In this document: positions 5,294 to 64,000 of the stretch, one piece after another
How the letters are laid out: each line of letters starts with the position of its first letter
Position numbering within the stretch: position 1 is the stretch's first letter
Assembly (NCBI GenBank): GCA_014685065.1
Contig: GCA_014685065.1_4092.1
DNA: 64,000 nt
Direction: 5' to 3' (one strand)
From: a phage
Notes under the pieces: model-generated
What the model was told of the DNA's origin: nothing
The model's database searches: none
The model's input: only the letters and a program-made list of their open reading frames with translations
Program-made: the position numbers and the translations under genes

Positions 5294-5340
5294 TTAAATA
5301 TTTCCTCAGAATAGATTTATATGATGTATTTATTTTAGTT

Positions 5341-5371
5341 AAAAGAAAAGGCCAAGCATAGACTTGACCTT
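5341..5371 (-). terminator. intrinsic terminator (minus strand)
   Basis: 9-bp stem with one G-U pair (AAGGCCAAG/CTTGACCTT on plus) with T-run on the minus strand; near-identical copy at 6888-6920. Confidence 0.45.
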
Positions 5372-5380
5372 AATATGTTA

Positions 5381-6871: not shown

Positions 6872-6887
6872 ATATTTTCCTTATATT

Positions 6888-6920
6888 GAAACAAATAAAG
6901 GCCAACCATAGTTGACCTTT
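6888..6920 (-). terminator. intrinsic terminator (minus strand), paralogous to 5341-5371
   Basis: AAAGGCCAAC-CATA-GTTGACCTTT hairpin with T-rich tract on the minus strand. Confidence 0.45.
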
Positions 6921-6928
6921 ATTATTAA

Positions 6929-7708: not shown

Positions 7709-7771
7709 ATAACTACCTCACTTGTTATGATGGTGTCACCCAAAAGAGTGACACCTTTATTATTATAATTA

Positions 7772-13297: not shown

Positions 13298-13394
13298 TTA
13301 TACCCTCCATTATAACCTTGTTAATATGTATATATTTAGTTTTATTATGCTGTTATCCAACAATTAATACATTATTTGACAAAAGCAAATATAA

Positions 13395-13436
13395 TAAAAA
13401 ACCAGACTTATTTAGAACAAGTCTGGTTAATTTTTT
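13395..13436. terminator. bidirectional intrinsic terminator
   Basis: CCAGACTT-9 nt-AAGTCTGG hairpin flanked by A-run upstream and T-run downstream. Confidence 0.55.
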
Positions 13437-14331
13437 ACTTACCGGAGATGACAATCTTACCACTGAAAGAAATATCAGAAGTGAAGATTACATCACCAGT
13501 ACTACTAATTTGTGTATCAGTCACTACCAACTCGAATGGAGATGACGCAACACTTCCAGGTGTTTTATTTGCATAAATTGAAATATACAAATTATCTGGG
13601 GTTTGATTGTGTTCGGATGCTGGAATAGTGATTGTGAAATCACCAGCACTAGAAACCCAATCTGCTTGGTTTACTAATTTACTATAAGGTACTGTCATTG
13701 TGGTTGCTCCTATAATGTTTACTTTAACACTTGCATAATCTGTGATTTGACCAATCACATCAATTGTTATATCCCCAATACCACTAACTGTTACTGTGGT
13801 TTGGAATACTGATTCCAATGCAACATTACCTGGGTCACCTTGTAGTTGAATCATAATATCAGAACCTCTACCATGAACTGATTCTGGTAGTGTGTAAGTA
13901 TAATGATCAGTAGTATCTGGTACTAATGTAAATGCAGAAACAGGAACTATTTCAGTAGTTACATATGAGCTATCAGTTCCAGGTGAGCTACCTTTAAATG
14001 GTTTCCAAATACCAAGATCTTTAATATAAATTTGAAGAACATTAGTACTATCAACCAAAAAGTAAACGTCACCATCTAGACCAATAGAATCGGATGGTGC
14101 TGTTGTTCCACGTAAGATACCAGAACTACCACCACCACTGTGTGCGTTTAAATATCCCAATGTAACCAAGTGTGTGTTTGCAGTTGGTTCACCTGCTGAA
14201 ATTGGAAGAAGTTGTGTTCCTGAGTAGTTTTGAATTTGCACAACACTACCATTTGTGGTAATCTGTGCACCATTCTTCCCAAGAATGAAGGACTTCTTCA
14301 TGGTTCCTTCTAAATTAGAAAAAACTGCCAT
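13435..14331 (-). CDS. tail spike/fibre protein sharing an N-terminal module with the next gene
   Basis: N-terminus MAVFSNLEGTMKKSFILGKNGA is near-identical to that of the 14348-16489 product; GGAG RBS. Confidence 0.55.
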   Translation of the reverse strand: MAVFSNLEGTMKKSFILGKNGAQITTNGSVVQIQNYSGTQLLPISAGEPTANTHLVTLGYLNAHSGGGSSGILRGTTAPSDSIGLDGDVYFLVDSTNVLQIYIKDLGIWKPFKGSSPGTDSSYVTTEIVPVSAFTLVPDTTDHYTYTLPESVHGRGSDIMIQLQGDPGNVALESVFQTTVTVSGIGDITIDVIGQITDYASVKVNIIGATTMTVPYSKLVNQADWVSSAGDFTITIPASEHNQTPDNLYISIYANKTPGSVASSPFELVVTDTQISSTGDVIFTSDISFSGKIVISGK

Positions 14332-17619: not shown

Positions 17620-17729
17620 AATATTTCCCTTGTATGAGTTAATGTCATATACCAATATTTATCAGTACAAAATACATTTCGTTATCATTAATAAATAAAT
17701 GAAAGTTCACTACTAAAAGGGCTTAAACA

Positions 17730-39247: not shown

Positions 39248-39312
39248 AATTTATTCCTTTAAATCAGTAAAGTACTAGTTCAGTACTGGGAATTATATAT
39301 AGAAATATTTAT

Positions 39313-46399: not shown

Positions 46400-47239
46400 A
46401 TGACAAATAGGCCAAAGCGTAAAAAGTATCTCAATAATGCTGATTTACTTCGTGAAATACAAAAAAGTAAGATTTCATACTGCTGGTTATTAGACAAATC
46501 ATATAGTATGTATGATTATATTGTTTTTCATGAGTCAGAAATTACTGCTGAGTTACTTGAAAAAGCCAAAGCAGCACGAATCAAACGACTAAACAATGAA
46601 ATGCTTGATAGTATTCGTGAAAAGGAAAGTATGAGTGCTAAAAAAGCTAAAGAATATGCAGATGAAAATAATTTAGTTATCACTGATGTTCCAATCGATG
46701 AAGTTGTTATTCGTGTTATCACTGATGAACATATTCCACCCGACACTAGAGTTAACTTTGAACCATTCAAGCATTACATTGTAGATAATGAAGGAATTCT
46801 CTATGAAGTATGTCGTTCTCATTGGAAAGGAGATCTTGAAACTGGTGAATTCAGTACTGTTCATGGTAAAATTACAAATGAACTAGGGAAGATGTTCATT
46901 AAACTTGCTGAGGAAATCTCTCATAAATCTAATTACAGAAACTATACATACTTAGATGAAATGATGGGTGATGCAAGAATACAATTAGTTAAAAACGCAC
47001 TTCTCTTTAAAGAGAGCATTCTTTATAAAAAAGATAAACCAGCAGTTCAGCTAAATCCTTTCTCTTACTATACATCATTCGTAAACAATAGTTTTCGTTC
47101 TATATTGAATAGTGAGAAAAATGTTCGAAATATACGTGATGATTTACTTGAAATGCATGGCTTTACGCCATCACATACACGTCAAATTGAGATTGAATTG
47201 AACATGATTGAAAGGAAAAATGAAGATGGCTCTGTTTGA
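46400..47239 (+). CDS. late-transcription sigma factor, gp55-like
   Basis: N-terminal KKYLNNADLLREIQ resembles T4 gp55 (recalled from memory) with further collinear segments; sits next to gp47/gp46 as in T4. Confidence 0.55.
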   Translation: MTNRPKRKKYLNNADLLREIQKSKISYCWLLDKSYSMYDYIVFHESEITAELLEKAKAARIKRLNNEMLDSIREKESMSAKKAKEYADENNLVITDVPIDEVVIRVITDEHIPPDTRVNFEPFKHYIVDNEGILYEVCRSHWKGDLETGEFSTVHGKITNELGKMFIKLAEEISHKSNYRNYTYLDEMMGDARIQLVKNALLFKESILYKKDKPAVQLNPFSYYTSFVNNSFRSILNSEKNVRNIRDDLLEMHGFTPSHTRQIEIELNMIERKNEDGSV

Positions 47240-50923: not shown

Positions 50924-50983
50924 AGCTGTTTGTCCTGTTTTGTTAAATAAAGTATATTAAAAAGTTTTGTGAGGTACAATAGA

Positions 50984-51931
50984 ATGGCTAAAATGACACA
51001 ACAACAATTTATAGATAAATCAATTAATCTACATGGTAGTATTTACACCTACAATAACACCGTGTATGTTAATGCACATCAACCAGTGTCTATTACATGT
51101 AAAATTCATGGTGACTTTACGGTAGTTCCTAATAAACATATTTCCGCAAAGCAAGGTTGTCCGGTTTGTTCTGATATTGCAAAGAAAGAACGTAAATCTA
51201 AAAAGTCACTGGAGTCATTCTTTACTGAAGCAAAAGAAGTACACGGTGATAAGTATGATTACTCTAAAGTGTTTTTCAACATTCGTTCAGAGAAAATTAC
51301 TATCATATGCAAAGAAGAAGGTCATGGTGAATTTAATCAGGTAGTTAGTAATCACCTAGCTGGACAGGGTTGCCCTGAATGCTCCAAAGCACTTATTGGT
51401 TTAAAGAAAAGAACACCAGAAGATGTATTCTTTGAAGATTGTAAGTACATTCATATGGATGCATACGACTACTCCAATACAAAATATAATGGTATGTATG
51501 AAACAATTACACCAGTATGCAAACGTCATGGAGAATTCACAGTACTGGCAACTAAACATTATCATAGAAAGCAAGGTTGTCCGGTTTGTTCTGACATGGA
51601 ACTAAAGTCAAGACCAGTTATTGAAATTCAGAATTTTTTAAAAGAGTATGATATAATATTTGAAATGGAAAAGAAGTTTGATGGTTGTAAAAATATAAAC
51701 CATTTACCATTTGATTTTTATATTCCTTCACTGAATCTTCTAATAGAGTATGATGGTATTCAACACTTCAAACCAATAGAGTACTTTGGTGGTAAACAAG
51801 CTTTAGCTGAACAGCAAAGAAATGATGAAATAAAAAATCAATTCTGTTTTAATAACAACATTACTCTTCTTAGAATAAAGTATTTCGAAGATCATATTAA
51901 AATCATCAAAGACTATATATCAAAACTTTAA
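50984..51931 (+). CDS. free-standing nuclease: three Cys/His repeat units plus C-terminal DUF559/Vsr-like PD-(D/E)XK domain (putative homing endonuclease)
   Basis: Three ~45-aa repeats (YxYS...C..HGxF......H....QGCPxCS) then LPFDFYIPSLNLLIEYDGIQHF...LLRIKYFE. ORF-track start is GTG 50969; ATG 50984 with GAGGT RBS preferred. Confidence 0.55.
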   Translation: MAKMTQQQFIDKSINLHGSIYTYNNTVYVNAHQPVSITCKIHGDFTVVPNKHISAKQGCPVCSDIAKKERKSKKSLESFFTEAKEVHGDKYDYSKVFFNIRSEKITIICKEEGHGEFNQVVSNHLAGQGCPECSKALIGLKKRTPEDVFFEDCKYIHMDAYDYSNTKYNGMYETITPVCKRHGEFTVLATKHYHRKQGCPVCSDMELKSRPVIEIQNFLKEYDIIFEMEKKFDGCKNINHLPFDFYIPSLNLLIEYDGIQHFKPIEYFGGKQALAEQQRNDEIKNQFCFNNNITLLRIKYFEDHIKIIKDYISKL

Positions 51932-51986: not shown

Positions 51987-52038
51987 TATGTGTAAAAGTT
52001 GGAACTAAGTACTTAATGAATATTTTTATAAAAATAGT

Positions 52039-52066
52039 GAGACAACTTTAAAGTTTGTGCTATAAT
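52039..52066 (+). promoter_or_regulatory. sigma70-type early promoter (GAGACA, 16 nt, TGcTATAAT) with no protein gene downstream
   Basis: Same architecture as the promoters at 801, 23342 and 46315. Confidence 0.5.
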
Positions 52067-52072
52067 GTTTGT

Positions 52073-52526
52073 TGTAGTAATGACAATCCTGTTGAATGCA
52101 GAAATGCATATAAATTAGAACCTGATCCTATCGAAAATGTAGATGGCAGATGAGCAGTTCAACAGTGCGATGAGCAAAAGAAACCCGTTAGATGTGGGCA
52201 TAGTTTGAACCCCTCACGGCAATGCGGCTCAATAAAGAACTCCGATAAGCATACAGAGAGTTCCTCGATAGACATATAAGGATCGCACCTTACCAGATTT
52301 GCTAAGGGAGTTTATTAAGTGATTTTAATAAACAGCCTGAAGTTTGATTGTATAGACTTTCAGGTGAGTGTCAGGATGATTAAGACTGACGACCGTTGCA
52401 CATGACTGCGATAGAGAGAAACAGAGCAACCCGCTTTCGTTCTTAATATATTTTTAAGAAATTCGCAATACAATAAATGCTGAAACCATCAGCGTCAAGA
52501 AATAGAGACTTCATTGTCTCTTTTTT
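52073..52526 (+). ncRNA. candidate structured noncoding RNA (~450 nt), identity unknown
   Basis: Bounded by the promoter above and an intrinsic terminator (stem 52504-52521 plus T-run); no ORF of 60 aa or more; GC-rich hairpins. Confidence 0.3.
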
Positions 52527-52740
52527 ATTGTCTTCATTCCCCTGCGGGGGGATGAAAATGTCCTCAACAAATCCCGTCAAGTATTAAATCTTTTAAAGTT
52601 CTTTATAATTAATTTAATTAAATGAATATGAGTTACGTAGTAACGAATATTCTTCAGCTAACGAATGAAATGAGTTAGATGAATCCAATAATATTAAAAT
52701 TAATCCTTTCATAATTCAATTCAAATAATTCTGTAGTTTA

Positions 52741-52771
52741 AAACCAAAAAAAACCAGCAACAATGTGCTGG
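52741..52771 (-). terminator. intrinsic terminator (minus strand)
   Basis: CCAGCA-6 nt-TGCTGG hairpin; minus strand reads hairpin then TTTTTTTTGG. Confidence 0.6.
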
Positions 52772-52782
52772 CTATATGAAAA

Positions 52783-52992
52783 TTAGTGCTTCTCGTTTTG
52801 TTTTTTAATTTTTTTATTAAAAGACTTAACTAATAAGTCTCTATCTATTAATGGCATATTAAGGAGTGTTCCATAGTCAATGTTATCCATATATACAGAA
52901 CATTCCATTAGTGCATTTTTGATTTCTGACTTATTCAGTTCTATCTCCTTCAGTACTTCTTGTATTTCTTCAGGAGATGACTGGAGAAGCAT
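52783..52992 (-). CDS. hypothetical small protein
   Basis: 69-aa ORF, start overlaps the stop of the upstream gene by 1 nt. Confidence 0.4.
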   Translation of the reverse strand: MLLQSSPEEIQEVLKEIELNKSEIKNALMECSVYMDNIDYGTLLNMPLIDRDLLVKSFNKKIKKQNEKH

Positions 52993-53828
52993 TACTCGAA
53001 AAAATGACTAGGATCATATTTTAGTCCATCAATTTCCCATTGATGATTACATCCATCACATTCTACTTCCATACTATGTGATACTCCAATTTCAAGTACT
53101 TCATCCATTTTTTCACGAATTAGTTTAAGTACTCCCTTCGATTGTTGTCCAAGCCATTCATTAATAAATTCTTTTTCAACTACTTCATCACCATCTGGTG
53201 TTATAATTTTTGCAATAACTCCACCGATCATGTCGAAGTTAAGTTGAGCCATGTTTTCAAATACTTCAGAAAATATTTTTACTTTTTCATCTTTATCAAT
53301 ATCAGCAGTTTCAAGAAACTTAGTCTTCTGTTGCTCACTGAACATGCGTTCAGCAAACGATGAATATTCTTTCCATGTCAGTGGTCTAAATTCTAAACGG
53401 AGTCCATTATCTAAATCAATTGATGGGATTTCTTCAAATGCTTGTGCAGTTTCAAGAAGATATGATAGATTACGCTCAAATCGACCTTCTTTTTCACATT
53501 CAGGACATACAACGTTAATATCATATGTTTCTTCTTTAGAAGCAACTTTAATAGCAATAAGAAGCATTTCAACGTCATTTACATACAACTCATCAGCGTC
53601 AATTACATTAGGAACACAGTTTTCAATAACACGGGATACTGCATCTCCGTTTAGTAACATATCGGGGGTATTAAGTGTCATTTCATCACGTGCACTACGT
53701 GCACAAACTCCACATTTGACACCTTTTGGACCTAGGACTCCTTCTTTATAAGGAATAACGCCGTTTGTAACTAACTTAGTACTGATCTCTTCAATTTTAG
53801 TGTACTTAGCAAGTGGATTCATAGCCAT
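52992..53828 (-). CDS. hypothetical Cys-rich protein (possible zinc-binding virion/assembly protein)
   Basis: 278 aa with CGVC, CPEC and CDGC pairs; preceded by GGAG RBS and a TATAAATA late-type motif. Confidence 0.45.
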   Translation of the reverse strand: MAMNPLAKYTKIEEISTKLVTNGVIPYKEGVLGPKGVKCGVCARSARDEMTLNTPDMLLNGDAVSRVIENCVPNVIDADELYVNDVEMLLIAIKVASKEETYDINVVCPECEKEGRFERNLSYLLETAQAFEEIPSIDLDNGLRLEFRPLTWKEYSSFAERMFSEQQKTKFLETADIDKDEKVKIFSEVFENMAQLNFDMIGGVIAKIITPDGDEVVEKEFINEWLGQQSKGVLKLIREKMDEVLEIGVSHSMEVECDGCNHQWEIDGLKYDPSHFFE

Positions 53829-53862
53829 TTTATTAAATCTCCATGTAATAAATGTGTTTTAG

Positions 53863-53870
53863 TATTTATA
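53863..53870 (-). promoter_or_regulatory. T4-like late promoter motif TATAAATA (minus strand)
   Basis: Exact TATAAATA on the minus strand about 35 nt upstream of the 53828 start codon. Confidence 0.45.
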
Positions 53871-53958
53871 AGACCAAAAAAGATTAAATTAAACTAATTT
53901 TTATATTCTCTATAGTTTCATAAATATTTCTATAATACATCTATTAAAAGGGAATGTT

Positions 53959-56163
53959 ATGGCTGGAAATACAAGTGATTACCTACTCCAGCAGTTGGTT
54001 AATCAAACTAAAGATAACAACGATAGTTTGAGTGCTATACGTGAGTTATTGGCTGAAAATATAAAAAATGATAGAAAGAAATCCGGTTCTAAAAGTGGAA
54101 AACGTAATGGAAGTAATTCATCAAGTACTGGAAACCGTGGCTCTCGAACAAATAACAAAGCTGATGATGGTAAAGAATTTGGAAAAATATTTAAATCATT
54201 ATCATCTGAAGTATCGAATGTCGGCAAAACTATGATGAGTACGTCTGCAAACGTTAGCAATGTTGTAAACTCACTAGGAATGAGTGCATCTTCATTTGCT
54301 GGTTCATTAGCAATGATCCCAGGTCCAGTTGGTGCAGCAGCATCTGCCTTCAAATTGGTTGCTGACGCTGGTTTAGCAGTTTATAATGTGTTAAATGCAC
54401 AGCTTGAAGTTTATAATAGAATAAACAGTGCTGGTGTCGCTCTATCTGAAGGTTACGGCTCCATATTAAAAGGTGCTGGTGCATCAATGATGAGTATTGA
54501 TGCATTTGGTGAAGCATTACAAACTCATAGTGCCGTTGTTGCACAATTAGATGGTGCATATGGTGATGGTGTTTCTACATTTGGTAAATTATTGGGTACT
54601 GTGCAACAAGCACAAAATCAATTAGGTTTATATGGTGTTTCTCAAAAAACATTAACTGATTTAACTGCACGTAATATTAAATTCCAAAAGCAATTTGGTG
54701 GAAGAGAAATGTTACGTAGTATGGATCAAGCAAAAAGTACTGAACAGTTTATCATGAGCATGACTAAGTTCAGTAAAAGCATGGGTGAGTCAGTTGATGC
54801 ACTATTAAATAAAACACAAAACTTAGATAAATCATTAGACACACGTTCAATGCAAATCGCATTACAAAACTATTCTGGATTATCTAGTAAAGCAGCAGTT
54901 GCAACATCAAAAGCATTTAACGAAGCGGCTGCCAGTATGGGTGATGCTGGTGCAGATTTTCTACGTTTAATTTCACATCGTTTAACTATTGGTGGAGTAC
55001 CAGATGATTTATTGACTCCAGTACTGAACCAATTTGCTGATTTAGGTGAGAACTTGGTACGTAGTGGTGTTACTGATTCACAAGAAATTCGCCGTCAACA
55101 ATTGGAATTTGTTAAAAAGAACAAAGAACTAATAAAGCAAGATTTATTAAATCAGATACAATTAGGAAACACTACGGCAGCAACCTTCAACCAACAACTA
55201 CTTGATATGGAAGCTGCGATTAATGATCCTAAGAGTCAACCAGCAGATAAACTAACACAATTCACTGATAGATTCAATAGATGGATTAGTAAAGAATTTA
55301 CTGAACCATTTAATAAAATGTATGCAGATACACAAAATTCTATTGCGGATTACCTTACTGATATTGCAGACCGTACTGATGGTGCATGGGAATTTATCGG
55401 AGAGTTAGCACTTGATGGTTTTGGTTTGGTTCCTATTGCGAAAGATGCAGTTGCGTATTTGGATAGGATTGGTGGTGAGTTTGAGCAGTGGTTAGAAGGG
55501 TTAGGTACTGAAATTTTTGGTAGTGGATATAATAAAGTTTCAGAAGCATTTGATAGCTTTATGAATAACCTAATGGATCTTCCTGGTAAACTTTGGGATT
55601 CTGTTAAAGGTTGGTTTGGTGGTTCAGACGACAAAGTAAAAGTAGAAAACAATTCTGTTACCGATGGTGCAGAAAAAGTTAATAATTATTTTGAAGAAAA
55701 AATGAATTCATTTGGTGATTATATTTCTAGTTCATTTGATGGTTTTTTAAAATGGAATTCAAGTAGAAACTTTAAACAACCAAAACCCCTTGATGAATCA
55801 GTTGCTGAAAAACTTATTAGTAGTGGTCTTGAAAATAAGCCAAGAGCTACTGCGAGAATTGAAAAATCTGAACATGTTGCACCATATGTAACGATAACTC
55901 CAAAAACATTTGACAAATCAGCATGGGGACCAAATGATCTACCAATTCAAGCTGAACCGGACGATTATGAGTCCATGAAAGCGATGATAAATAGTGGTAG
56001 TAGTATGGCAAATGCTAATAATAATGCCACAATATCAGAAGACATGAAAGAGTTACTTAAAAAACTTGCTGATGTTAATGAGCAATCTCTATCTGCTGTG
56101 CAACAGACAAATAACTATCTAAGAACTATCTCTGAAAACACTCAAGGTGAGAGAAACAGTTAA
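53959..56163 (+). CDS. hypothetical virion protein
   Basis: 734 aa; basic S/G/N-rich low-complexity N-terminus, hydrophobic Gly/Ala-rich segment; immediately upstream of the portal gene. Confidence 0.45.
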   Translation: MAGNTSDYLLQQLVNQTKDNNDSLSAIRELLAENIKNDRKKSGSKSGKRNGSNSSSTGNRGSRTNNKADDGKEFGKIFKSLSSEVSNVGKTMMSTSANVSNVVNSLGMSASSFAGSLAMIPGPVGAAASAFKLVADAGLAVYNVLNAQLEVYNRINSAGVALSEGYGSILKGAGASMMSIDAFGEALQTHSAVVAQLDGAYGDGVSTFGKLLGTVQQAQNQLGLYGVSQKTLTDLTARNIKFQKQFGGREMLRSMDQAKSTEQFIMSMTKFSKSMGESVDALLNKTQNLDKSLDTRSMQIALQNYSGLSSKAAVATSKAFNEAAASMGDAGADFLRLISHRLTIGGVPDDLLTPVLNQFADLGENLVRSGVTDSQEIRRQQLEFVKKNKELIKQDLLNQIQLGNTTAATFNQQLLDMEAAINDPKSQPADKLTQFTDRFNRWISKEFTEPFNKMYADTQNSIADYLTDIADRTDGAWEFIGELALDGFGLVPIAKDAVAYLDRIGGEFEQWLEGLGTEIFGSGYNKVSEAFDSFMNNLMDLPGKLWDSVKGWFGGSDDKVKVENNSVTDGAEKVNNYFEEKMNSFGDYISSSFDGFLKWNSSRNFKQPKPLDESVAEKLISSGLENKPRATARIEKSEHVAPYVTITPKTFDKSAWGPNDLPIQAEPDDYESMKAMINSGSSMANANNNATISEDMKELLKKLADVNEQSLSAVQQTNNYLRTISENTQGERNS

Positions 56164-56174
56164 GGACGAAAATA

Positions 56175-57914
56175 ATGAGTTGGAAACGACATATGACAGT
56201 GGGAAGGTCTAAACTATCGACCATCCCAAATCAGTCCAGTAATAGCAATAAATCAACAGGAACGAAAACAAATTTCGCTTCCTATCTTCCTGTTGTATAT
56301 AATGGATTGGCAAATCGTACTGAGCGTTATAGTCAGTATGAGCAAATGGACCAAGATCCTGAAATTAGAACTGCATTGAATATAATTGCTGACTTTTGTA
56401 CTCAAAGTACTGAAGATTTTGGTTTACCATATAAAATCAAATATAAAGATGATATTGGTGATACTGAAGTAACGACTATTGAAGATCGTTTAGATGCATG
56501 GACTGAACAAAATGATTTTAAAACACGAATGTATGAAATTGTGCGTGGTCTTCTGAAATATGGTGATCAATTTTTCATTCGAGATCCAGAAACATTCGAT
56601 TGGTATTGGGTAAGTCCCAAAAATGTTGAGCAAGTATTTGTTAACGAAGCCACTGGTAAAACACCAGTAATTTATTATATACGTGACGTATCATTAAATT
56701 TGAAAGATAAAGTTTTTAGTAACCTTCAAGTAGGATTTGATAAAACCGCTTATCCAGGAGCTATTCCAACAACAATGGGTGGTGGTGGTTCAGTAGCTGC
56801 TGGTGGTGCATCTGGTTTTACAAGTCAAGGAAATACGGCTGACCCATTCAGTACTAATGGACAATTAGACGTTATTCCTGTTGGTGCAGAACACGTAATT
56901 CATCTAACACTAAATACAGGACAAGATGGGGTATGGCCTTTTGGTACTAGTATACTTGAGGACGTATTTAAAGTCTATAAGCAAAAAGAACTTCTGGAAG
57001 ATAGTATCATAATTTATCGTGTACAACGTGCACCTGAGCGTCGTGTATTTAAAATTGATGTTGGTGATATGCAAGCACACCAAGCGATGGCTTATGTTGA
57101 AAGATTTAAAAATGAAATCCACCAGCGTAGAATACCTTCAAACAAAGGTGGAAGTACTTCACTAATGGATGCAGCGTATAATCCATTAAGCATTTTAGAA
57201 GACTACTTTTTCCCACAAACTTCTGAAGGTCGTGGTTCAGATGTTCAAACATTACCAGGCGGTGATAACTTAGGACAAATTGATGACTTACGTTATTTCA
57301 ATAATAAATTGATTCGTGGTCTTCAAATACCAGCTTCATATCTACCACAAGGTCCAGATGATGGTGGTGTTTCATTATTTGGTGATGGTGCTACACAAGC
57401 TATGGCAAGTGAATTGCGATTCAATAATCAATGTATGCGTTATCAACGTTTAGTTGCAAAACATTTTGATGCTGAATTCAAAAGATTTATGGTTAAAAAT
57501 GGATATAACATTAGTACTTCATCTTTTGAAGTTATTATGAATCCACCTATTAACTTAGCTTCTTATCGTAAAGCTGAACTAGATGCTAAACTAATTAATA
57601 CATATCTTCCTCTTAATGACTTGCCTTATATGGCGAAACAAACAATTCTTGAAAAAATGGGCTTTTCTAAAGCTGATATTGTTAAGAATGAACAAATGTG
57701 GTTACAAGAGAATCCACAAGATGGTTCCCAACCTTCTGGTGGTGAAGAAGATTCCGCAGGATTGCAGTCTGTTGGTATTGATGCTCCAAATGATCCTGGA
57801 ATGGATCTTGGTATTGATGGAGAAGGTAATTTGGAAAGTGCTGATGCCGAATACCAAGAGCAACAGAGTGGAAGTGGTGGTTTCGACCCTAATAATTTAG
57901 GCAATTCTTTTTAA
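56175..57914 (+). CDS. portal protein (T4 gp20-like)
   Basis: LEDSIIIYRVQRAPERRVFKIDVGDM...TLPGGDNLGQIDDLRYF collinear with the T4 gp20 core (recalled from memory). Confidence 0.8.
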   Translation: MSWKRHMTVGRSKLSTIPNQSSNSNKSTGTKTNFASYLPVVYNGLANRTERYSQYEQMDQDPEIRTALNIIADFCTQSTEDFGLPYKIKYKDDIGDTEVTTIEDRLDAWTEQNDFKTRMYEIVRGLLKYGDQFFIRDPETFDWYWVSPKNVEQVFVNEATGKTPVIYYIRDVSLNLKDKVFSNLQVGFDKTAYPGAIPTTMGGGGSVAAGGASGFTSQGNTADPFSTNGQLDVIPVGAEHVIHLTLNTGQDGVWPFGTSILEDVFKVYKQKELLEDSIIIYRVQRAPERRVFKIDVGDMQAHQAMAYVERFKNEIHQRRIPSNKGGSTSLMDAAYNPLSILEDYFFPQTSEGRGSDVQTLPGGDNLGQIDDLRYFNNKLIRGLQIPASYLPQGPDDGGVSLFGDGATQAMASELRFNNQCMRYQRLVAKHFDAEFKRFMVKNGYNISTSSFEVIMNPPINLASYRKAELDAKLINTYLPLNDLPYMAKQTILEKMGFSKADIVKNEQMWLQENPQDGSQPSGGEEDSAGLQSVGIDAPNDPGMDLGIDGEGNLESADAEYQEQQSGSGGFDPNNLGNSF

Positions 57915-57927
57915 ACATAAATAACAG

Positions 57928-57952
57928 TGTATAAGAATGAGGGTTTATTTTT
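57928..57952 (+). terminator. putative intrinsic terminator
   Basis: TGAGGGT-8 nt-ACCCTCA hairpin followed by TTTATAAT (short T-run). Confidence 0.4.
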
Positions 57953-57987
57953 ACCCTCATTTATAATGCATATTTCAAGGAGATCAA

Positions 57988-58215
57988 ATGTTAAAGGACA
58001 TCTTTGAATCTAGCAGTGATTCAATGTACGACCCTGAAGATGATCAGAACGTATATAAAATTACTGATTCCAGAAAACCGAAACTAACATTACAAGTATT
58101 AAACAACTTAAGAAAGTACCGTGAATTTAAAGCACATGAAGAACAACGCCGCAAAAATGTGGTTGCAGTTGTTTATGCCGCTGCACCAACAGGTGACGGT
58201 TCTGGGTTAATGTAA
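57988..58215 (+). CDS. hypothetical small protein (possibly prohead core component by position)
   Basis: 75-aa ORF with AGGAG RBS, between the portal and head-core genes. Confidence 0.4.
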   Translation: MLKDIFESSSDSMYDPEDDQNVYKITDSRKPKLTLQVLNNLRKYREFKAHEEQRRKNVVAVVYAAAPTGDGSGLM

Positions 58216-58267
58216 ATCGAAAATCGCACTTTTTAAAGCTTTTAAAAAAGGCGATTTTATTCAGTAC

Positions 58268-58283
58268 TAAATAATATCATACT
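58268..58283 (+). promoter_or_regulatory. late-type promoter/leader element, variant of TATAAATA
   Basis: 16-mer TAAATAATATCATACT identical to 61032-61047; also shared downstream ACGAAT and GGAGxATATAATG start context. Confidence 0.4.
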
Positions 58284-58316
58284 TTATACGAATGTAATAT
58301 ATCTATGGAGGATATA

Positions 58317-59165
58317 ATGGCGAATTTAAAACTACTACAAGAAGCAATTGCGGCGTTTGCAAATGGCGAACAAGATATTGCTGATAAAAAAATGCGTAAG
58401 TATTTCGTTGAGCAAGCTCAAGAAATTAACAAACAACTAGAAGAAAGCATGGAAGATGAAGACGACGATGAAGATTGTGAAGTCGAAGTTAAAGTCAAAG
58501 ATGAAGAAAAGCTTGACGAAGATTTTGATGTACAACCAGACGAAGGTCTAAATGCTGAAATCGAATACACCCTTGGTGAAGAAGATGAAAGTGCAGAAGA
58601 AGAAGTTGAATTCTCTGCTGATGCAGATGGTGACGGTGAAGACGATGTTGACGTTGAAGTGAAAGCTGATGCTGATGTTCCTTCCGAAGACCAATGGGAA
58701 TCAATCCAAGATGCTTTCCGTGGCCTACAACAAATGTTTGATGAAATCGGTGACGGTGAAGTTGATCTAGATTCTGAAGAAGAAGTAGAAGATAGCGAAG
58801 AAGAAGTTGGTGTTGACGGTGACGACGAATTTGCTGATGTTGAATTCGGCGATGAAAAATTCGGTGAATCCTTCAAACTAGAAAAAGTTGCTCCAGTTGA
58901 TAAGAAAGAAAAAGCTGGCACTCATTCCAAATCTCCAGTAGCACCAGAAGCTAAATCTCCAGTAGCAGGAGCAGAGCCAGTTAAATTCGCTAAGAAAACT
59001 GACCAAGCACCACTACTAGACCTAGATGATAAATCTGTTCTACCAAAAGATAGCCTAGATCTTGGTAAAAATGCTCGCGGTGAAATGAAAGATGTTAAAG
59101 CACCAAAAACTACTGCATCTAATTCTAAATCACCACTAAGCAAAGCACAACCTAAACTAAAATAA
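58317..59165 (+). CDS. highly acidic protein, probable prohead core/scaffolding-type protein
   Basis: Long D/E-rich tracts (EDEDDDEDCEVEVKVKDEE, DGDGEDDVDVEVKADADV); position between portal and prohead protease. ORF-track start 58305; ATG 58317 with GGAGG RBS preferred. Confidence 0.45.
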   Translation: MANLKLLQEAIAAFANGEQDIADKKMRKYFVEQAQEINKQLEESMEDEDDDEDCEVEVKVKDEEKLDEDFDVQPDEGLNAEIEYTLGEEDESAEEEVEFSADADGDGEDDVDVEVKADADVPSEDQWESIQDAFRGLQQMFDEIGDGEVDLDSEEEVEDSEEEVGVDGDDEFADVEFGDEKFGESFKLEKVAPVDKKEKAGTHSKSPVAPEAKSPVAGAEPVKFAKKTDQAPLLDLDDKSVLPKDSLDLGKNARGEMKDVKAPKTTASNSKSPLSKAQPKLK

Positions 59166-59185
59166 ATATCTGAAAGGAGATCATT

Positions 59186-59809
59186 ATGAGTAGTATGATT
59201 CGTGAATGGTCTTCATTCAATGATTCTAAAGTTGTTTTGGAACATCGTGATAATGGATTTGGTGGGCGTGACTGCTATCTTCGTGGTATTGCTATTCAAG
59301 CCGACCAACGAAATTTGAACGAGAGAATTTACCCTTTATCTGAAATTACAAGGGCAGTAAATAACATGAACCAGCGTTTAGCTAAAGGTGAAAGCATTCT
59401 TGTTGAATGTGACCATCCAGAAACACTAACTATTAACCTAGACCGTGTAGCAGCAATGATTACTAAGGTTTGGATGGAAGGTGCTAATGGTATGGCAGAA
59501 ATCAAACTACTTGATACTGCACATGGTCAGAATATCCGTAAAATGCTAGAGGCTGGTGTAAAACTTGGTGTAAGTTCTCGCGGTTCCGGTAACGTTGATT
59601 ATAATGGAATAGTTTCTGATTTTGAAATTATCACTATTGATATTGTTGCTCAACCTAGTGCTCCAGAAGCATACCCAACAGCGGTATTTGAATCTCTGAT
59701 GAGTAAGTACGGATCACCTTGTAATAGTTCTAAAAAAATCACTGAATCTAAAAAAGTAAATAATTTAGATTCTGAAATATACGATTTTTTCAAGAAATTA
59801 AAAGGTTAA
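59186..59809 (+). CDS. prohead core protease (T4 gp21-like)
   Basis: Collinear with gp21-family pattern N.RIYP...CDHPE...AMITKVWMEG...GVKLGVSSRGSG...DFE...D.V.QPS.PEAY (T4 gp21 recalled from memory). Confidence 0.6.
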   Translation: MSSMIREWSSFNDSKVVLEHRDNGFGGRDCYLRGIAIQADQRNLNERIYPLSEITRAVNNMNQRLAKGESILVECDHPETLTINLDRVAAMITKVWMEGANGMAEIKLLDTAHGQNIRKMLEAGVKLGVSSRGSGNVDYNGIVSDFEIITIDIVAQPSAPEAYPTAVFESLMSKYGSPCNSSKKITESKKVNNLDSEIYDFFKKLKG

Positions 59810-59820
59810 CATTTTAAAAA

Positions 59821-59828
59821 TATAAATA
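59821..59828 (+). promoter_or_regulatory. T4-like late promoter motif TATAAATA
   Basis: Exact TATAAATA 48 nt upstream of the scaffold start; overlaps an 8-bp hairpin (59826-59849). Confidence 0.45.
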
Positions 59829-59875
59829 TCTGTATGTTGAAGTACAGATATTTCAGTACTTAAAGGAGAGAACGA

Positions 59876-60991
59876 ATGTCTAAATTAGAAAAGCTTCTAA
59901 AAGAATCATCTCTTTCTGATGAGGCAAAACAGCTAATTCAGGAAGCATGGAATGAAGAAAAGAATACACTAGCCGCAGAGATGCGTGAAGAAATGAAAGG
60001 CCGTTATCAGCAAGATTTGGCTGAACTAACCGAAGGTTTGAACACTATGGTTACTCAAGTCATTGCTGAAGAAATGGGTGCTGTATATGAAGAGAAAAAA
60101 CGTCTCGTTGAAGATCGTGTAACTCTACGTAAAACACTAAGCAATTTCTCTGCGTTTTCAAACTCTGTTTTGGCTGAAGAAGTTAAACAAATGCGTAAAG
60201 AACGTAAGCATCTTCATGAATGCATGGGTAAATTCGTTAATTTTTCTAACGGTATCCTAGCAGAAGAGCTAAAAGAATTCCACACTGAAAAACGCCAACT
60301 AGTAGAAACTCGCGTTAAACTACTTGCTGAAGGTTCACGTCAAATTGCTGAAGCTCGTAATAACTTCATCAAACGTACATCTGAAAGTGCTGCTAAATAT
60401 ATTGCAGAAACCACTCAGAAGAATCTATATGCGTTGAAACAAGATCTAGTGGAAGCAAAACAAAATATGTTTGGTCGTAAAATCTTTGAAGCATTTGCTC
60501 AAGAGTTTAATGTCAAACAATTTAATGAAAACTCATTGCTACGTTCCCTAACTGAATCAATTAAATCTAAAGAAGATGAAATTGCTCAAGTTAAGCAAGA
60601 ACTACATGAAACTGCTAATGCCGTTAAAGCTGCTAAAACCAAACTACGTATTATGGAAGATGCACAAGCACGTAATGCGATTATGTCTGAACTAGTAAAA
60701 CCACTAACTGCACAGCAAAAACAAATTATGGAATCCCTTCTAGCTACTTCACCTACTGAAAAGCTTAAAGAAGATTTCAGCAAGTACCATAAGTCAGTAC
60801 TTAACGGTACTAAAGTAAATGAATCTGCTACCACTCGTCAAGCAGTTCAGTCTTCCGCTAAGAAAACTCTTGCAGAAGGTAAAGTAATCACTGGCAACCG
60901 TCAGGCTATTGTTGAAAGCGAAGAAATGACCGCTGACGATATGGCATTCCTAAAAGAACTAGATGTTCTTTCAGGTATCAATAAAAAATAA
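59876..60991 (+). CDS. prohead scaffolding protein (gp22-like)
   Basis: 371 aa, A/E/K/Q-rich with heptad-like periodicity (predicted coiled coil); position between protease and capsid genes. Confidence 0.55.
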   Translation: MSKLEKLLKESSLSDEAKQLIQEAWNEEKNTLAAEMREEMKGRYQQDLAELTEGLNTMVTQVIAEEMGAVYEEKKRLVEDRVTLRKTLSNFSAFSNSVLAEEVKQMRKERKHLHECMGKFVNFSNGILAEELKEFHTEKRQLVETRVKLLAEGSRQIAEARNNFIKRTSESAAKYIAETTQKNLYALKQDLVEAKQNMFGRKIFEAFAQEFNVKQFNENSLLRSLTESIKSKEDEIAQVKQELHETANAVKAAKTKLRIMEDAQARNAIMSELVKPLTAQQKQIMESLLATSPTEKLKEDFSKYHKSVLNGTKVNESATTRQAVQSSAKKTLAEGKVITGNRQAIVESEEMTADDMAFLKELDVLSGINKK

Positions 60992-61029
60992 ACATTTTAA
61001 AGCATTTTAATAATCAAATTTTTCAGTTC

Positions 61030-61037
61030 TATAAATA
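61030..61037 (+). promoter_or_regulatory. T4-like late promoter motif TATAAATA
   Basis: Exact TATAAATA 46 nt upstream of the capsid start; extended block TAAATAATATCATACT shared with 58268-58283. Confidence 0.5.
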
Positions 61038-61082
61038 ATATCATACTGAAAAACGAATATAACATCTTTAAGGAGATATATA

Positions 61083-62258
61083 ATGTCACAACTACTAAAT
61101 GAATCCAAATGGGTAGCAGTAAAAGAGAAACTAGTTGAAGGTCTACAGGGTACTCGTAAGTCTGTAATGGAAACTGTTCTTGATAACCATCGTAAAGTTA
61201 TGCTAACTGAATCCGCAACTTCTGGTGCAACTACCGCTGGTAACATCGCTACTCTAAACAAAGTGATTCTACCAATTATGCGTCGTGTAATGCCAACCGT
61301 TATTGCTAACGAAATCATCGGTGTTCAACCTATGACTGGTCCAGTTGGTCAGATCCACACCCTACGTGTACAATATGCTGATAACGCACCTGGTGTAATC
61401 GCTGGTGAAGAAATGCTTTCTCCATACAAAATCGCTAAATCTTACTCTGGTGATCTAAATGCGGATAATAGCAACCCACAAGCTGCTCCTACTAGCCAAC
61501 TAGAAGGTACTATGGGTCGTCGCGTTAACATCCGTATTCTACGTGAAACTGTTGAAGCGAAATCTCGTCGTCTATCTGCACGTTGGACTGTTGAATCTGC
61601 ACAAGATGCTCAATCCCAACATGGTGTTGACGTTGAAGCAGAACTAATGGCTGCAATCGCTCAAGAAGTTACTGTAGAAATCGACCAAGAGCTACTAAGC
61701 CGTCTACGTGCACTACCTGGTGCTGCTGCTGTAACTTATGACCAATCTAAAGTTACTGGTGTTGCAACCTTCGTTGGTGATGAGCACGCTGCTCTAGCTA
61801 CTCTAATTAACCGTCAAGCAAACGAAGTTGCTCGTCGTACTAAGCGTGGTGCTGCAAACTGGGCTGTTGTTTCCCCAACTGCACTAACCATTCTACAATC
61901 TGCTACTACTTCTAGCTTTGCACGTACCACTGAAGGTACTTTTGAAGCACCAACTAACGTTAAGTTTGTAGGTACTCTAAACAGCACTATGCGTATTTTC
62001 GTTGATACCTATGCTAGTGATGCAGAAGATATTCTAATTGGTTATAAAGGAAATGCGGAAACTGATGCTGGTGTATTCTATTGCCCATACATCCCACTAA
62101 TGGCTTCCGGTACTGTAATGGACCCTAACACTGGGGAACTCGTTACAACTTTCTTAACCAGATACGGGTATGTTCAGTTGACCGATAGCACCAGTTCACT
62201 AGGTAACGCTGCGGACTACTACAGCAAAATCGCTATCAAAAACGTTACTTTCATGTAA
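61083..62258 (+). CDS. major capsid protein (gp23-like position)
   Basis: 391 aa directly after the scaffold gene; strongly biased codon usage suggests high expression; strong terminator follows. Confidence 0.6.
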   Translation: MSQLLNESKWVAVKEKLVEGLQGTRKSVMETVLDNHRKVMLTESATSGATTAGNIATLNKVILPIMRRVMPTVIANEIIGVQPMTGPVGQIHTLRVQYADNAPGVIAGEEMLSPYKIAKSYSGDLNADNSNPQAAPTSQLEGTMGRRVNIRILRETVEAKSRRLSARWTVESAQDAQSQHGVDVEAELMAAIAQEVTVEIDQELLSRLRALPGAAAVTYDQSKVTGVATFVGDEHAALATLINRQANEVARRTKRGAANWAVVSPTALTILQSATTSSFARTTEGTFEAPTNVKFVGTLNSTMRIFVDTYASDAEDILIGYKGNAETDAGVFYCPYIPLMASGTVMDPNTGELVTTFLTRYGYVQLTDSTSSLGNAADYYSKIAIKNVTFM

Positions 62259-62302
62259 TTGTAATAGATTTAAAAGATTTAATCAAAAAAAATAAAAACA
62301 AA

Positions 62303-62333
62303 AGGGACTCTTCGGAGTCCCTTTTCTTTTTAT
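62303..62333 (+). terminator. intrinsic terminator
   Basis: AGGGACTC-TTCG-GAGTCCCT hairpin followed by TTTCTTTTTATT. Confidence 0.75.
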
Positions 62334-62404
62334 TAAAAAACCCTTTACACAATGTTCTGGAATGTATATAATACGCACATACACGAAAATAAAGAGACAA
62401 AATT

Positions 62405-63502
62405 ATGCCAAACGTAAGTATCAACAAAGAAGAGTTTATCAGCAAAATGACTGCTAAGTATGGTGAATTTGATTTCAGTACTTTAGTATTCAAAGCAAGT
62501 AAAACAACTGTGAAATGTAACAAGTGTGGAAAAGAAAACATAAAATCTGCACTTCGTCACATTGCATGTACATGTGCATCATGTTATTCAAACATGTCGC
62601 AACGTTCAAACAACGACACATTCATCAGCACGGTAGAAAATAAATTTGGTAAAGATAAATTCAAATTTGATAAACTAAATTACACTAACGCTATAACAAA
62701 AGTAACACTCTTTTGCACTGATGAAGAGCACAACGATTACTTTGAAATAACACCAAACAAATTTCTTTCTGGTAAGGGATGTCCTGTGTGTAATAAAAAT
62801 GAAGCATACAGTACTGAATCATTCACTGCAAAAGTAAAAGAAAACTATGGTGATGCATTGGATTTGACAAATACTGTTTATGTCAATCAGAAAACTAAAG
62901 TAACGGTTCATTGCACAAAAGGACATCACGACTGGACAGTAGATCCAAAAACTTTAATCGTCGGTAAAACTGGCTGTGGTACATGCTCTGGTAAAGGTGG
63001 ACGAAGTACTGAGCGTTTCATTGAACTAGTATCACCAATTCATAACCATAAGTATGATTATAGCTTGGTGGATTATACAACAAGTGAGAAGTATGTGGAT
63101 ATTGTGTGTCCGACGCATGGTGTTTTTTCCCAACAACCAAAAGCACATATGGCGGGTAAAGGATGTCCATCATGTGGTGAATATGGATATCAACCATCAA
63201 AACCTGGATATTTCTATGTTCAAAAACTAACTAACAATGACAAGACGGTGTACAAATATGGAATCACTGGTGATATGAAACGCCGTGTAAACGAACAAAG
63301 TCGTAATTCTGGGTTCGAACATGAAGTACTAGTAGAACGCTACTTTGAAGATGGAAATCAACCATTACTGTTGGAAAAGTTCATAAAGAAATACATTGAA
63401 AGTGGAGTAGTAAGTACTGAAGAGTTGCCGTCAGGATTTACTGAAACGTTTGATGAAAAGTATCTAAAATCTGTACTGGAAATTGTAAATAACTTTAAGT
63501 AA
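62405..63502 (+). CDS. free-standing nuclease: four Cys/His repeat units plus C-terminal GIY-YIG-like domain (putative homing endonuclease)
   Basis: Four repeats ending in GKGCPxC-type motifs, then GYFYVQKL...YKYGITGDMKRRVNEQ (GIY...YIG...R...E) at 63216-63275. Confidence 0.55.
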   Translation: MPNVSINKEEFISKMTAKYGEFDFSTLVFKASKTTVKCNKCGKENIKSALRHIACTCASCYSNMSQRSNNDTFISTVENKFGKDKFKFDKLNYTNAITKVTLFCTDEEHNDYFEITPNKFLSGKGCPVCNKNEAYSTESFTAKVKENYGDALDLTNTVYVNQKTKVTVHCTKGHHDWTVDPKTLIVGKTGCGTCSGKGGRSTERFIELVSPIHNHKYDYSLVDYTTSEKYVDIVCPTHGVFSQQPKAHMAGKGCPSCGEYGYQPSKPGYFYVQKLTNNDKTVYKYGITGDMKRRVNEQSRNSGFEHEVLVERYFEDGNQPLLLEKFIKKYIESGVVSTEELPSGFTETFDEKYLKSVLEIVNNFK

Positions 63503-63525
63503 ACAATCTAAAGGAGTTGACACGG

Positions 63526-63876
63526 ATGTTAACTGTATACAAATTTAATAGAGAAGAGTACTTAAAGAGTCAGTACTCAAACATAGAAATAAATGTTCCT
63601 TATGGGACATTAGTTGGTTATGATGAATCCACCGAAACTTTATATTATAATGATGATAGATTGGATTATAGTTTAGATTCTTTTATAGAAGATATACTAA
63701 ACACACATACTGAAGATATGTTATATGAAGAATACATAGATCATTATAGGGAACGTATGTCACAATTACACTCGGACGCTCCAGTACTAAACATTACACA
63801 AGAACCTTCTGAATTTCAGCCCCATAATCCTTTTCAACGTTTAATAGATATTGGTTTGAAATTCACTATTAGTTGA
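63526..63876 (+). CDS. hypothetical protein
   Basis: ORF-track start is TTG 63517; ATG 63526 with AAGGAG RBS preferred; 116 aa. Confidence 0.45.
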   Translation: MLTVYKFNREEYLKSQYSNIEINVPYGTLVGYDESTETLYYNDDRLDYSLDSFIEDILNTHTEDMLYEEYIDHYRERMSQLHSDAPVLNITQEPSEFQPHNPFQRLIDIGLKFTIS

Positions 63877-63915
63877 TAGATAAATATCTCCATATTAATG
63901 ATGGAGATTGAATCT

Positions 63916-64000
63916 ATGTCACAGATATGTTATGTTATAATAAATTCTGCATGGCCTGAGTATGTTAAAATTGGTTTTACTTCAAAATCAGAAATGACAG
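63916..64000 (+). CDS. 3' partial ORF, N-terminus resembles GIY-YIG/T5orf172-type nuclease fold
   Basis: MSQICYVIINSAWPEYVKIGFTS fits the YVI...KIG(F/I)T start of T5orf172/GIY-YIG-like domains; runs off the window end. Confidence 0.3.
   Translation, partial: MSQICYVIINSAWPEYVKIGFTSKSEMT

Follow-up and report, generated by a model that had tools for sequence, protein, structure and literature searches.

In bacteriophage T4, a hairpin that sequesters the Shine-Dalgarno (SD) sequence of a gene, with a late promoter at the 5' strand of that hairpin, was reportedly described by McPheeters et al. in 1986. The T4 genes e (encoding lysozyme), soc, 49 and I-TevI all carry a hairpin that sequesters the SD and the AUG, and in all of them a late promoter lies in the 5' strand of the hairpin or next to it (PMC3014915). 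The subject here is a similar arrangement in front of a gene that we call gp606, after its orthologue in Escherichia phage 121Q. This gene begins at the very end of a 64,000-nucleotide (nt) stretch of phage DNA (NCBI GenBank assembly GCA_014685065.1, contig GCA_014685065.1_4092.1), which is read 5' to 3' throughout and is called, at its full length, the window.

The likeness between gp606 and the four T4 genes has several parts. In both, the SD and part of the AUG lie in a helix. In both, a late box of the TATAAATA type stands at the 5' arm of that helix, so that late transcripts would lack the arm. In T4, early and middle promoters upstream give read-through RNA that is occluded, and predicted promoters upstream of gp606 would do the same. 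T4, like the window phage, encodes a late sigma factor of the gp55 type, and in the case of I-TevI the regulated gene is, as here, of a nuclease type.

There are, of course, differences as well. The lineage here is that of the Rak2/121Q-like jumbo phages and not that of the T-even phages, the box is ATAAATA and thus lacks the first T, and the system is known here by computation only. Further, the anti-SD arm of gp606 lies between the box and the predicted start of transcription, whereas in T4 it lies upstream of the box. A further difference is that no homologue of gp33 or gp45 was detected in the related phage CBB (PMC5259590).

We hold it probable, though well short of certain, that a promoter-dependent switch of the kind known from T4 genes e, soc, 49 and I-TevI governs the translation start region of gp606. 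Transcripts entering from upstream would carry an anti-SD arm, UCUCCAU. Such read-through RNA might come from a sigma-70-type promoter before the nearby gene gp604, from a middle-type promoter before the adjoining gene gp605 (in other genera), or from capsid messenger RNA (mRNA) that leaks through a terminator. It would fold, base-pairing the GGAG of the SD and part of the AUG, and ribosomes would load on it poorly. RNA polymerase carrying the phage late sigma factor, in turn, would begin transcribing some 6 nt past the box, near 63892, and the late mRNA, lacking the left arm of the hairpin, would leave the SD free. The outcome would be that gp606 is translated mainly late, and mainly from its own promoter. 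Of all this, the analysis shows to which family gp606 belongs, that the hairpin exists and is conserved with covariation, how the box behaves genome-wide, and that the phage encodes a late sigma factor.

The hairpin that holds the ribosome-binding site

The left (anti-SD) arm of the hairpin, ATCTCCAT, occupies 63886-63893 on the plus strand and begins at the last A of the promoter box. The right arm, ATGGAGAT, occupies 63901-63908 on the same strand, and a loop of 7 nt (63894-63900) separates the two. The arms are 100% complementary over 8 base pairs (bp). Within the right arm lies the SD of gp606, a GGAG at 63903-63906 (plus strand), 9 nt before the ATG.

The initial annotation of this DNA had pointed to a perfect 8-bp hairpin with GGAG in its right arm, and it was exact in both coordinates and sequence. 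It had also suggested that translation is occluded. This stands insofar as a helix does hide the SD; what it missed was the adjoining ATAAATA box, which offers a way of relief, and a nearby upstream stop codon that would allow coupling.

Folding adds a second helix. The minimum free energy (MFE) fold of 63870-63935 has an energy of -14.2 kcal/mol, and both the MFE and the centroid folds hold an outer helix of 6 bp, all A/U, in which AUAGAU (63876-63881, plus strand) pairs with AUCUAU (63912-63917). Confined to read-through RNA, this outer helix would also take in the A and the U of the start codon. A search of Rfam returned no matching family.

Taken alone, the hairpin is not beyond chance. 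Its fold has a z-score of -1.56, and 12 of 200 shuffled sequences fold as well as it does. A 64-kb Markov-1 simulation of the window is expected to contain about 14 perfect 8-bp hairpins with a loop of 4-10 nt, or about 4 if at least 3 G-C pairs are demanded. This hairpin stands out from chance by its location, with the promoter box before it and the SD after, and by its conservation.

A hairpin between two genes might, of course, serve as a transcription terminator or as an RNA-processing site, either for gp605 on the plus strand or for an antisense transcript on the minus strand. A terminator scan does call it terminator-like on the minus strand, where the complement of the box gives ATTTAT after the stem. 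On the plus strand, however, the stem is followed by TTGAATCT, which has no T run, and the scan makes no call. No gene is annotated on the minus strand of 121Q within about 10 kb upstream or 9 kb downstream, and in orthologous leaders it is TGAACT or TGATGT that comes after hairpins such as CCCC/GGGG. Nor does processing fare better, as a stem of 8 bp is too short for RNase III. We give hardly any credence to a terminator or a processing site here.

Conservation and covariation of the leaders

The window holds only 28 codons of gp606. Between 61000 and 64000 it is 100% identical to 121Q (NC_025447.1, Asteriusvirus), and 121Q therefore served as proxy for the part of gp606 beyond the window end. 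For comparison, the leaders of gp606 orthologues were taken from 15 GenBank phages and 18 IMG/VR contigs, giving 21 distinct sequences. The 15 fetched loci span Asteriusvirus, Eneladusvirus, Mimasvirus and unclassified relatives.

All 21 leaders hold, in order, the box, a pyrimidine-rich arm straight after it, and a complementary purine arm that contains the SD. The box reads ATAAATA in 17 of them. The initial annotation had named, as the observation that would speak against its hairpin, relatives that keep the gene and lack the structure; every relative examined keeps the SD-sequestering helix.

The arms from which that helix is built differ among phages. In 121Q and the window, TCTCCAT pairs with ATGGAGA; in vB_Ec-M-J and Turkey5, TCTTCAT pairs with the same ATGGAGA by way of G-U. 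Phage A4 pairs ATATCTCC with GGAGATAT, and Hallingskeid pairs CTTCCAT with ATGGAGG (G-U); CTTCC with GGAGG, with G-U, is also among the pairs seen. CCTCC stands opposite GGAGG in leader L019, CCCC opposite GGGG in Eneladusvirus and Mimasvirus, ACCC opposite GGGT in L029-L032, TCCCA opposite TGGGA in EJP2, and TAACTC opposite GAGTTA in XaC1 and L025. Across the leaders, the loop measures 6-22 nt and the arms 4-12 bp.

Pairing was then counted position by position. Counted from the end of the box, positions +1 to +4 pair with the SD region in 19-21 of the 21 leaders, and two to three Watson-Crick pair types occur at +1 to +3; these counts use individually folded sequences and treat related sequences as independent. 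In a permutation that swapped arms between phages, and that treats related sequences in the same way, native arm pairs had a mean of -9.4 kcal/mol and swapped pairs a mean of -6.1, and none of 10,000 permutations reached the native mean. A MAFFT alignment of the leaders was dropped for pair counting, the unequal loops having put the right arms out of register; the structure-anchored counts and the swap test were used in its place.

Those who would see here a chance hairpin without function, in front of an SD that happens to complement a C/T-rich tract, can point to the z-score and to the dozen or so perfect hairpins (about 14, as given above) that 64 kb should hold in any case. They must, however, explain why, in at least four named genera and in metagenomic relatives, loops and flanks have diverged but the helix has persisted, each arm showing changes that compensate for those in the other. 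They must also explain why Eneladusvirus and Mimasvirus keep the SD GGGG together with CCCC, although a neighboring gene there uses GGAG. Chance is a most improbable explanation of these leaders.

A different objection accepts that the inverted repeat is functional, but places its function in DNA and not in RNA structure, as an operator that overlaps the late promoter and would be bound by a dimeric regulator. An example is I-TevI, a repressor of its own late promoter (PMC10448857; also cited in PMC3014915). The repeat here is a perfect DNA palindrome that abuts a promoter box, and covariation of the two half-sites would be expected of an operator too. In 5 of the 21 leaders, however, the arms depend on G-U to keep their pairing. 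A G-U pair can form in sense-strand RNA only; in DNA, as on the antisense strand, it is a mismatch. This argues both against a DNA operator and against an antisense element. Further, loop and arms vary within the wide limits just given, and the right arm always coincides with the SD. An operator is, in our view, very unlikely.

The probable late-promoter box and its expected sigma factor

The ATAAATA that abuts the left arm lies at 63880-63886 (plus strand) and is predicted to be a T4-like late-promoter box of the -10 type. In T4, the late promoter itself consists of a TATA box of 8 bp, and the start site follows about one helical turn downstream (PMC2988020). For the Rak2-like phages CBB and GAP32, both with a sigma factor resembling gp55, ATAAATA has been predicted as the late promoter (PMC5259590).

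The statistics of this motif were run separately on the window itself and on 121Q. In the window, ATAAATA is depleted, with 16 copies against 37.3 +/- 6.9 expected. Thirteen of these fall wholly within non-coding DNA, which makes up 4.6% of the window. Each of the 16 points in the direction of the gene that follows, and most stand 6-64 nt before its start. The same pattern appears in 74 kb of annotated 121Q, where 18 of 21 copies are intergenic and boxes lie upstream of portal-region, protease, scaffold, major capsid, baseplate and tail-fiber genes.

The expected reader of these boxes, a late sigma factor of the gp55 type, is encoded at 46400-47239 on the plus strand. It matches phrog_12791 ("sigma factor for late transcription") with an E-value of 2.7e-154 and phrog_234 ("late sigma transcription factor") with 8.4e-18; its 121Q orthologue, gp591, is annotated likewise.

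Because the box sits directly against the left arm, a start of transcription at about 63892 would be expected. By analogy with T4, the late transcript would begin at about 63892-63893, which is the 3' end of the left arm. Such a start falls after the anti-SD bases CUCC, and the late mRNA could therefore not form the hairpin.

Two further sites in the window carry ATAAATA boxes in pairs, back to back on opposite strands and 28 and 50 bp apart (17656-17697 and 53863-53926). These look like compact bidirectional late-promoter regions that serve divergent structural-gene clusters.

Predicted opening of the SD in two transcripts

The computed cost of opening the gp606 SD is 8.8 kcal/mol in read-through RNA (-100 to +40), and 3.5 in an RNA whose 5' end lies 6 nt beyond the box. 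Of the 18 genes preceded by ATAAATA in 74 kb of 121Q, none shows a larger difference than gp606. A difference is computed for every gp606 orthologue as well, ranging from 2.4 to 10.2 kcal/mol.

A scan of 173 kb of 121Q places gp606 in a small group. Four of the 32 box-preceded genes show a difference of at least 5 kcal/mol; the other three are gp49 (ATG 35078; 9.2 kcal/mol), gp551, the tail sheath gene (ATG 262851; 7.7), and gp17 (ATG 14260, minus strand; 6.4). In all three, the late box lies inside the SD-sequestering hairpin or its loop. At gp49, for example, it lies in the loop of a 14-bp stem, AAAAACUCCAAGAU/AUCUUGGAGUUUUU. Thus, the design recurs in 121Q.

The gp49 stem has a T run behind it, and so looks like a terminator for the preceding gene as well. 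The prohead-protease gene (ATG 59186 of the window) behaves differently from other late genes. Its ATAAATA box stands 17 nt upstream, inside the end of the preceding open reading frame (ORF; region 59162-59185), and the cost of opening its SD is high in both transcript forms (9.6 and 6.9 kcal/mol).

Several points weigh against a late-promoter switch at gp606, beyond the unexceptional fold statistics and the treatment of related leaders as independent that were noted above. The stem is short, with 8 bp and 3 G-C pairs, and occlusion may be partial. In 4 of the 21 leaders the box reads CTAAATA and not ATAAATA. Immediately past the box the DNA is rich in C, unlike T4 late promoters (PMC2988020) and the CBB motif (PMC5259590), which are A/T-rich at that place; the gp606 late promoter may be weak. 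A literature search for transcript 5' ends or expression data found none for any Rak2-like phage, and for want of such maps the gp606 start site and the read-through RNA are inferred, as is the effect on translation. Last, in several genera the gp605 stop codon comes so near the helix that a ribosome terminating at it could melt the pairing, and the read-through RNA would then not be silent.

Possible coupling to gp605

The last of these points deserves separate attention. In the RNA phage MS2, the coat and replicase genes are coupled through a hairpin that is opened by the ribosome terminating upstream. The hairpin of gp606 could be opened in the same way, as the gp605 stop lies 0-10 nt from the base of the SD helix across the phages compared. 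Unlike MS2, gp606 has a promoter box embedded at the hairpin, and its coupling is a prediction.

The gp605 orthologue of the window occupies 63526-63876 on the plus strand and encodes an acidic protein of 116 amino acids (isoelectric point 4.4) that matches phrog_15724 only; searches of Pfam and NCBIfam returned no match to it. The identical protein was found in 121Q and in short metagenomic contigs. The gene is fast-evolving and always adjoins gp606 in the 15 fetched loci. Its TGA stop (63874-63876, plus strand) precedes the hairpin by 9 nt. The gap between stop and helix narrows to 0-5 nt in Hallingskeid, Munch, Yen9-04, BF, GAP32 and XbC2, and in the last four of these phages the stop is a TAA that forms part of the box itself (A-TAA-ATA).

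It could be argued from this geometry that coupling is the main function of the hairpin, alone or together with a late promoter. The hairpin would close the gp606 SD until a ribosome ending gp605 melts the left arm, and gp606 would then be made after gp605 and in proportion to it. The short distance from the stop to the first paired base speaks for this, as does the constant adjacency of the two genes. Coupling leaves unexplained, however, why ATAAATA, a motif otherwise confined to the upstream regions of genes, is kept here in all genera. In the window, moreover, the footprint of a ribosome at the gp605 stop would barely reach the stem, and box-in-hairpin genes such as gp49 show a promoter-based design in use in 121Q. 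We consider it unlikely that coupling is the main function. As a second route, it is plausible, and compatible with the late-promoter switch.

gp606 and the T5orf172 family

The ORF that starts at ATG 63916 encodes MSQICYVIINSAWPEYVKIGFTSKSEMT up to the window end (63916-64000, plus strand). In 121Q the full-length protein has 102 amino acids, and a tail-fiber gene follows. It matches the Pfam family T5orf172 (PF10544) with an E-value of 5.6e-13 and, against a cut-off of 20, a score of 49.7 bits; the match covers positions 2-98 of the 101 in the profile and residues 4-91 of the 102 in the protein. It matches MUG113 (PF13455) almost as well, with an E-value of 8.3e-13 and 49.2 bits against a cut-off of 22.3, and it matches phrog_15085 with 1.8e-58. 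A search of NCBIfam gave nothing meaningful.

Structure prediction agrees. An AlphaFold2 model of the orthologue P0004, which is 89% identical to gp606, has a predicted local distance difference test (pLDDT) score of 83 and the topology beta-beta-alpha-beta-alpha-beta-alpha. It has 106 matches in BFVD at an E-value of 0.001 or better; the best of these are predicted T5orf172 proteins, with E-values near 1e-6 and template modeling (TM) scores of 0.66-0.81. An alignment of 42 sequences, reaching to relatives of about 30% identity, has five invariant residues, G20, R30, E58, E77 and W78, and a further eight, Y6, N10, K18, Y34, Q35, T36, P39 and R41, that are conserved in at least 90%. All thirteen are invariant among the gp606 orthologues.

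What ties gp606 to the GIY-YIG fold proper is the literature, together with structural matches that are weak. T5orf172 is treated in the literature as a subfamily of GIY-YIG, and in one case nuclease activity that depends on a Glu is described (PMC10448857). A Foldseek search of the PDB with the P0004 model gave no match at an E-value of 0.001 or better, although its top matches, weak as they are, are enriched for GIY-YIG proteins (1zg2, Slx1 with a TM score of up to 0.59, At-HIGLE, and the N-terminal domain of UvrC). A sequence search of the PDB with gp606 returned nothing meaningful. When T5orf172 profiles were aligned by hhalign with the catalytic domain of I-TevI (its sequence checked against 1mk0 and 1ln0), the probability was below 1%. 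Because that alignment is not significant, placing Y6, R30 and E77 on the GIY-YIG catalytic residues stays an analogy. gp606 may be a nuclease, with the invariant E77 as the Glu on which the metal-dependent activity of that superfamily would depend.

The start codon merits a comment. The N-terminus M(S)QICYVI is conserved in all gp606 orthologues, and this fixes the start. In-frame ATGs also occur at 63898 and 63901, in the loop and the right arm, and some annotations begin there and give proteins of 107-108 amino acids (PBECO4 RefSeq; clusters P0001-P0003). Since these two ATGs have no SD and are absent in other genera, 63916 is likely to be the true start.

The initial annotation had placed the start at 63916, which is exact, and had assigned the gene to the T5orf172/GIY-YIG type. 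The T5orf172 half of that label is borne out by the Pfam match of full-length 121Q gp606 and by the BFVD matches of the AlphaFold2 model, but the label overlooked that this is a conserved single-domain core gene. It had further counted gp606 as the third gene of its kind in this DNA, a count that we did not reproduce. Searches of all six-frame ORFs of the window with phmmer and with a hidden Markov model of the orthologues found no second gp606-like gene, and the only other T5orf172-like match in the window, at 62405-63502, is below threshold.

A core gene and not a typical mobile endonuclease

T5orf172-family homing endonucleases are known from ICP1, T5-like phages and other phages (PMC10448857, PMC8263062). 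They share with gp606 the T5orf172/MUG113 Pfam domain. They share with it also a location, as the gp606 locus adjoins the major capsid gene, a site typical of these endonucleases (PMC10448857, PMC8263062). Unlike them, gp606 consists of the nuclease-type domain alone, in 102 amino acids.

One of two reasons not to class gp606 as a free-standing homing endonuclease gene is that such a gene should encode a sequence-specific DNA-binding domain; gp606 has none. The other is its distribution. A homing endonuclease gene is expected to be present sporadically, whereas gp606 is found in every relative examined. All 63 related phage records returned by a DNA search contain a match to the gp606 region, and the gene order major capsid, variable slot, gp605, gp606, tail fiber holds at 15 of the 15 fetched loci. 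The gp606 protein retains 69-94% identity across genera, whereas identity of its neighbor gp605 falls to about 30%. Thus, gp606 is best classed as a conserved single-domain core gene, not as a typical mobile homing endonuclease.

A search of a representative library of 1.84 billion proteins with the gp606 profile gave 1893 relatives at an E-value of 0.001 or better, but only 2 at 1e-30 or better; the gp606 orthologues are therefore a tight clade. Many of the best-scoring relatives in the library have 30-140 extra N-terminal residues, while others stand alone with about 90-120 amino acids.

The regulation of gp606 has its own parallels among nuclease-family genes. Both mobE of Aeromonas phage Aeh1 and segB of T4 (PMC3014915) are, like gp606, free-standing genes of a nuclease family within a block of essential genes, with the SD in a hairpin that limits translation or, at gp606, would do so. 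In contrast to them, gp606 lacks a DNA-binding domain, occurs in every relative, and is under strong purifying selection.

One could go further and propose that a domesticated gp606, having no DNA-binding domain, has taken up a core late function in all Rak2-like jumbo phages, perhaps in processing DNA around packaging or in excluding competing DNA. Here, gp605 and gp606 would form a conserved module that is doubly gated, by the embedded late promoter and by prior translation of gp605 through melting of the stop-proximal hairpin, and gp605 would be a specificity subunit or an inhibitor. We regard this proposal as speculative, and rather improbable in this full form.

gp604 and the variable slot

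The gp604 orthologue lies upstream of gp605, at 62405-63502 on the plus strand. By its Pfam and PHROG matches, it has zinc-finger repeats (DUF4379/DUF723/CapR-like) and a weak T5orf172-like domain at its C-terminus. Zinc-finger repeats combined with T5orf172 are a canonical architecture of mobile endonucleases (PMC10448857), and gp604 fits it. Its domains, and its place in a slot of variable content behind the major capsid gene, mark gp604 as being of the homing-endonuclease type. This slot, between the major capsid gene and gp605, is empty in PBECO4; elsewhere it holds genes of 924, 1098, 1107, 1221 or 1599 bp. The slot of the window, 62259-63502, is by this comparison a hotspot for homing-endonuclease-type genes.

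The slot also bears on the read-through RNA. A strong bidirectional intrinsic terminator, with an 11-bp stem (5 G-C pairs) and then a T run, stands after the major capsid gene at 62300-62325. Directly after it, and as part of the gp604 insert, a scan predicts a sigma-70-type promoter, TTTACA-17-TATAAT (62344-62372, plus strand), that matches the consensus at 11 of 12 positions. This promoter is a likely source of early transcripts that would read through gp604 and gp605 into the hairpin.

In other genera, a predicted promoter of another class stands directly before gp605. GAP32, BF and XbC2 have TGAAAC(G/A)-N17-18-TATAAT at this place, and Yen9-04 has a similar variant with GGAACG. TGAAACG has been reported as the "-35" of a second, non-late class of promoter in CBB and GAP32 (PMC5259590). 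This, in turn, would put a non-late promoter inside the late structural cluster.

The window and its relatives

The window is DNA of a 121Q/PBECO4-like jumbo phage (Asteriusvirus) of E. coli, and the phage looks like a mosaic. In k-mer mapping it is collinear with 121Q without offset over 52001-64000 only. Elsewhere identity is about 90%, with several indels, and for this reason the possibility that the window is 121Q itself was rejected. In the tail-fiber region (4000-14000), the best identity found in the phage collection is at most 89.9%.

Two places of divergence concern endonuclease-type genes. The HNH endonuclease gene gp584 of 121Q (121Q 314100-314864) is apparently missing from the window, where the collinearity offset shifts by 737 bp near 39 kb; an ATAAATA box is still present close by, at 39306-39312. 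At 50969-51931 (plus strand), the window has an ORF of 320 amino acids with DUF723/DUF4379 zinc-finger repeats and a C-terminal region that is DUF2726-like below threshold. The 50-52 kb region in which it lies barely matches 121Q, whose corresponding interval of about 840 bp is unannotated. This ORF is probably another endonuclease-type insertion, with a nuclease domain unlike that of gp604.

Implications

The arrangement at gp606 would not add a new class of mechanism. It would extend a classic T4 design, a late promoter placed in the hairpin that hides a ribosome-binding site, to the distant Rak2/121Q-like jumbo phages, and it supplies a kind of support, covariation, that the original T4 cases largely lacked. 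It also gives independent support to ATAAATA as a working late promoter of Rak2-like phages.

The sequence rule that emerges, a box nested in an anti-SD arm or next to it, would pick out genes in which selection disfavors early translation. Among such genes in 121Q are, besides gp606, gp49, the tail sheath gene and gp17. As for gp606 itself, the analysis flags a nuclease-type domain that is retained throughout the group and, it appears, tightly regulated. This makes it a reasonable target for functional work.

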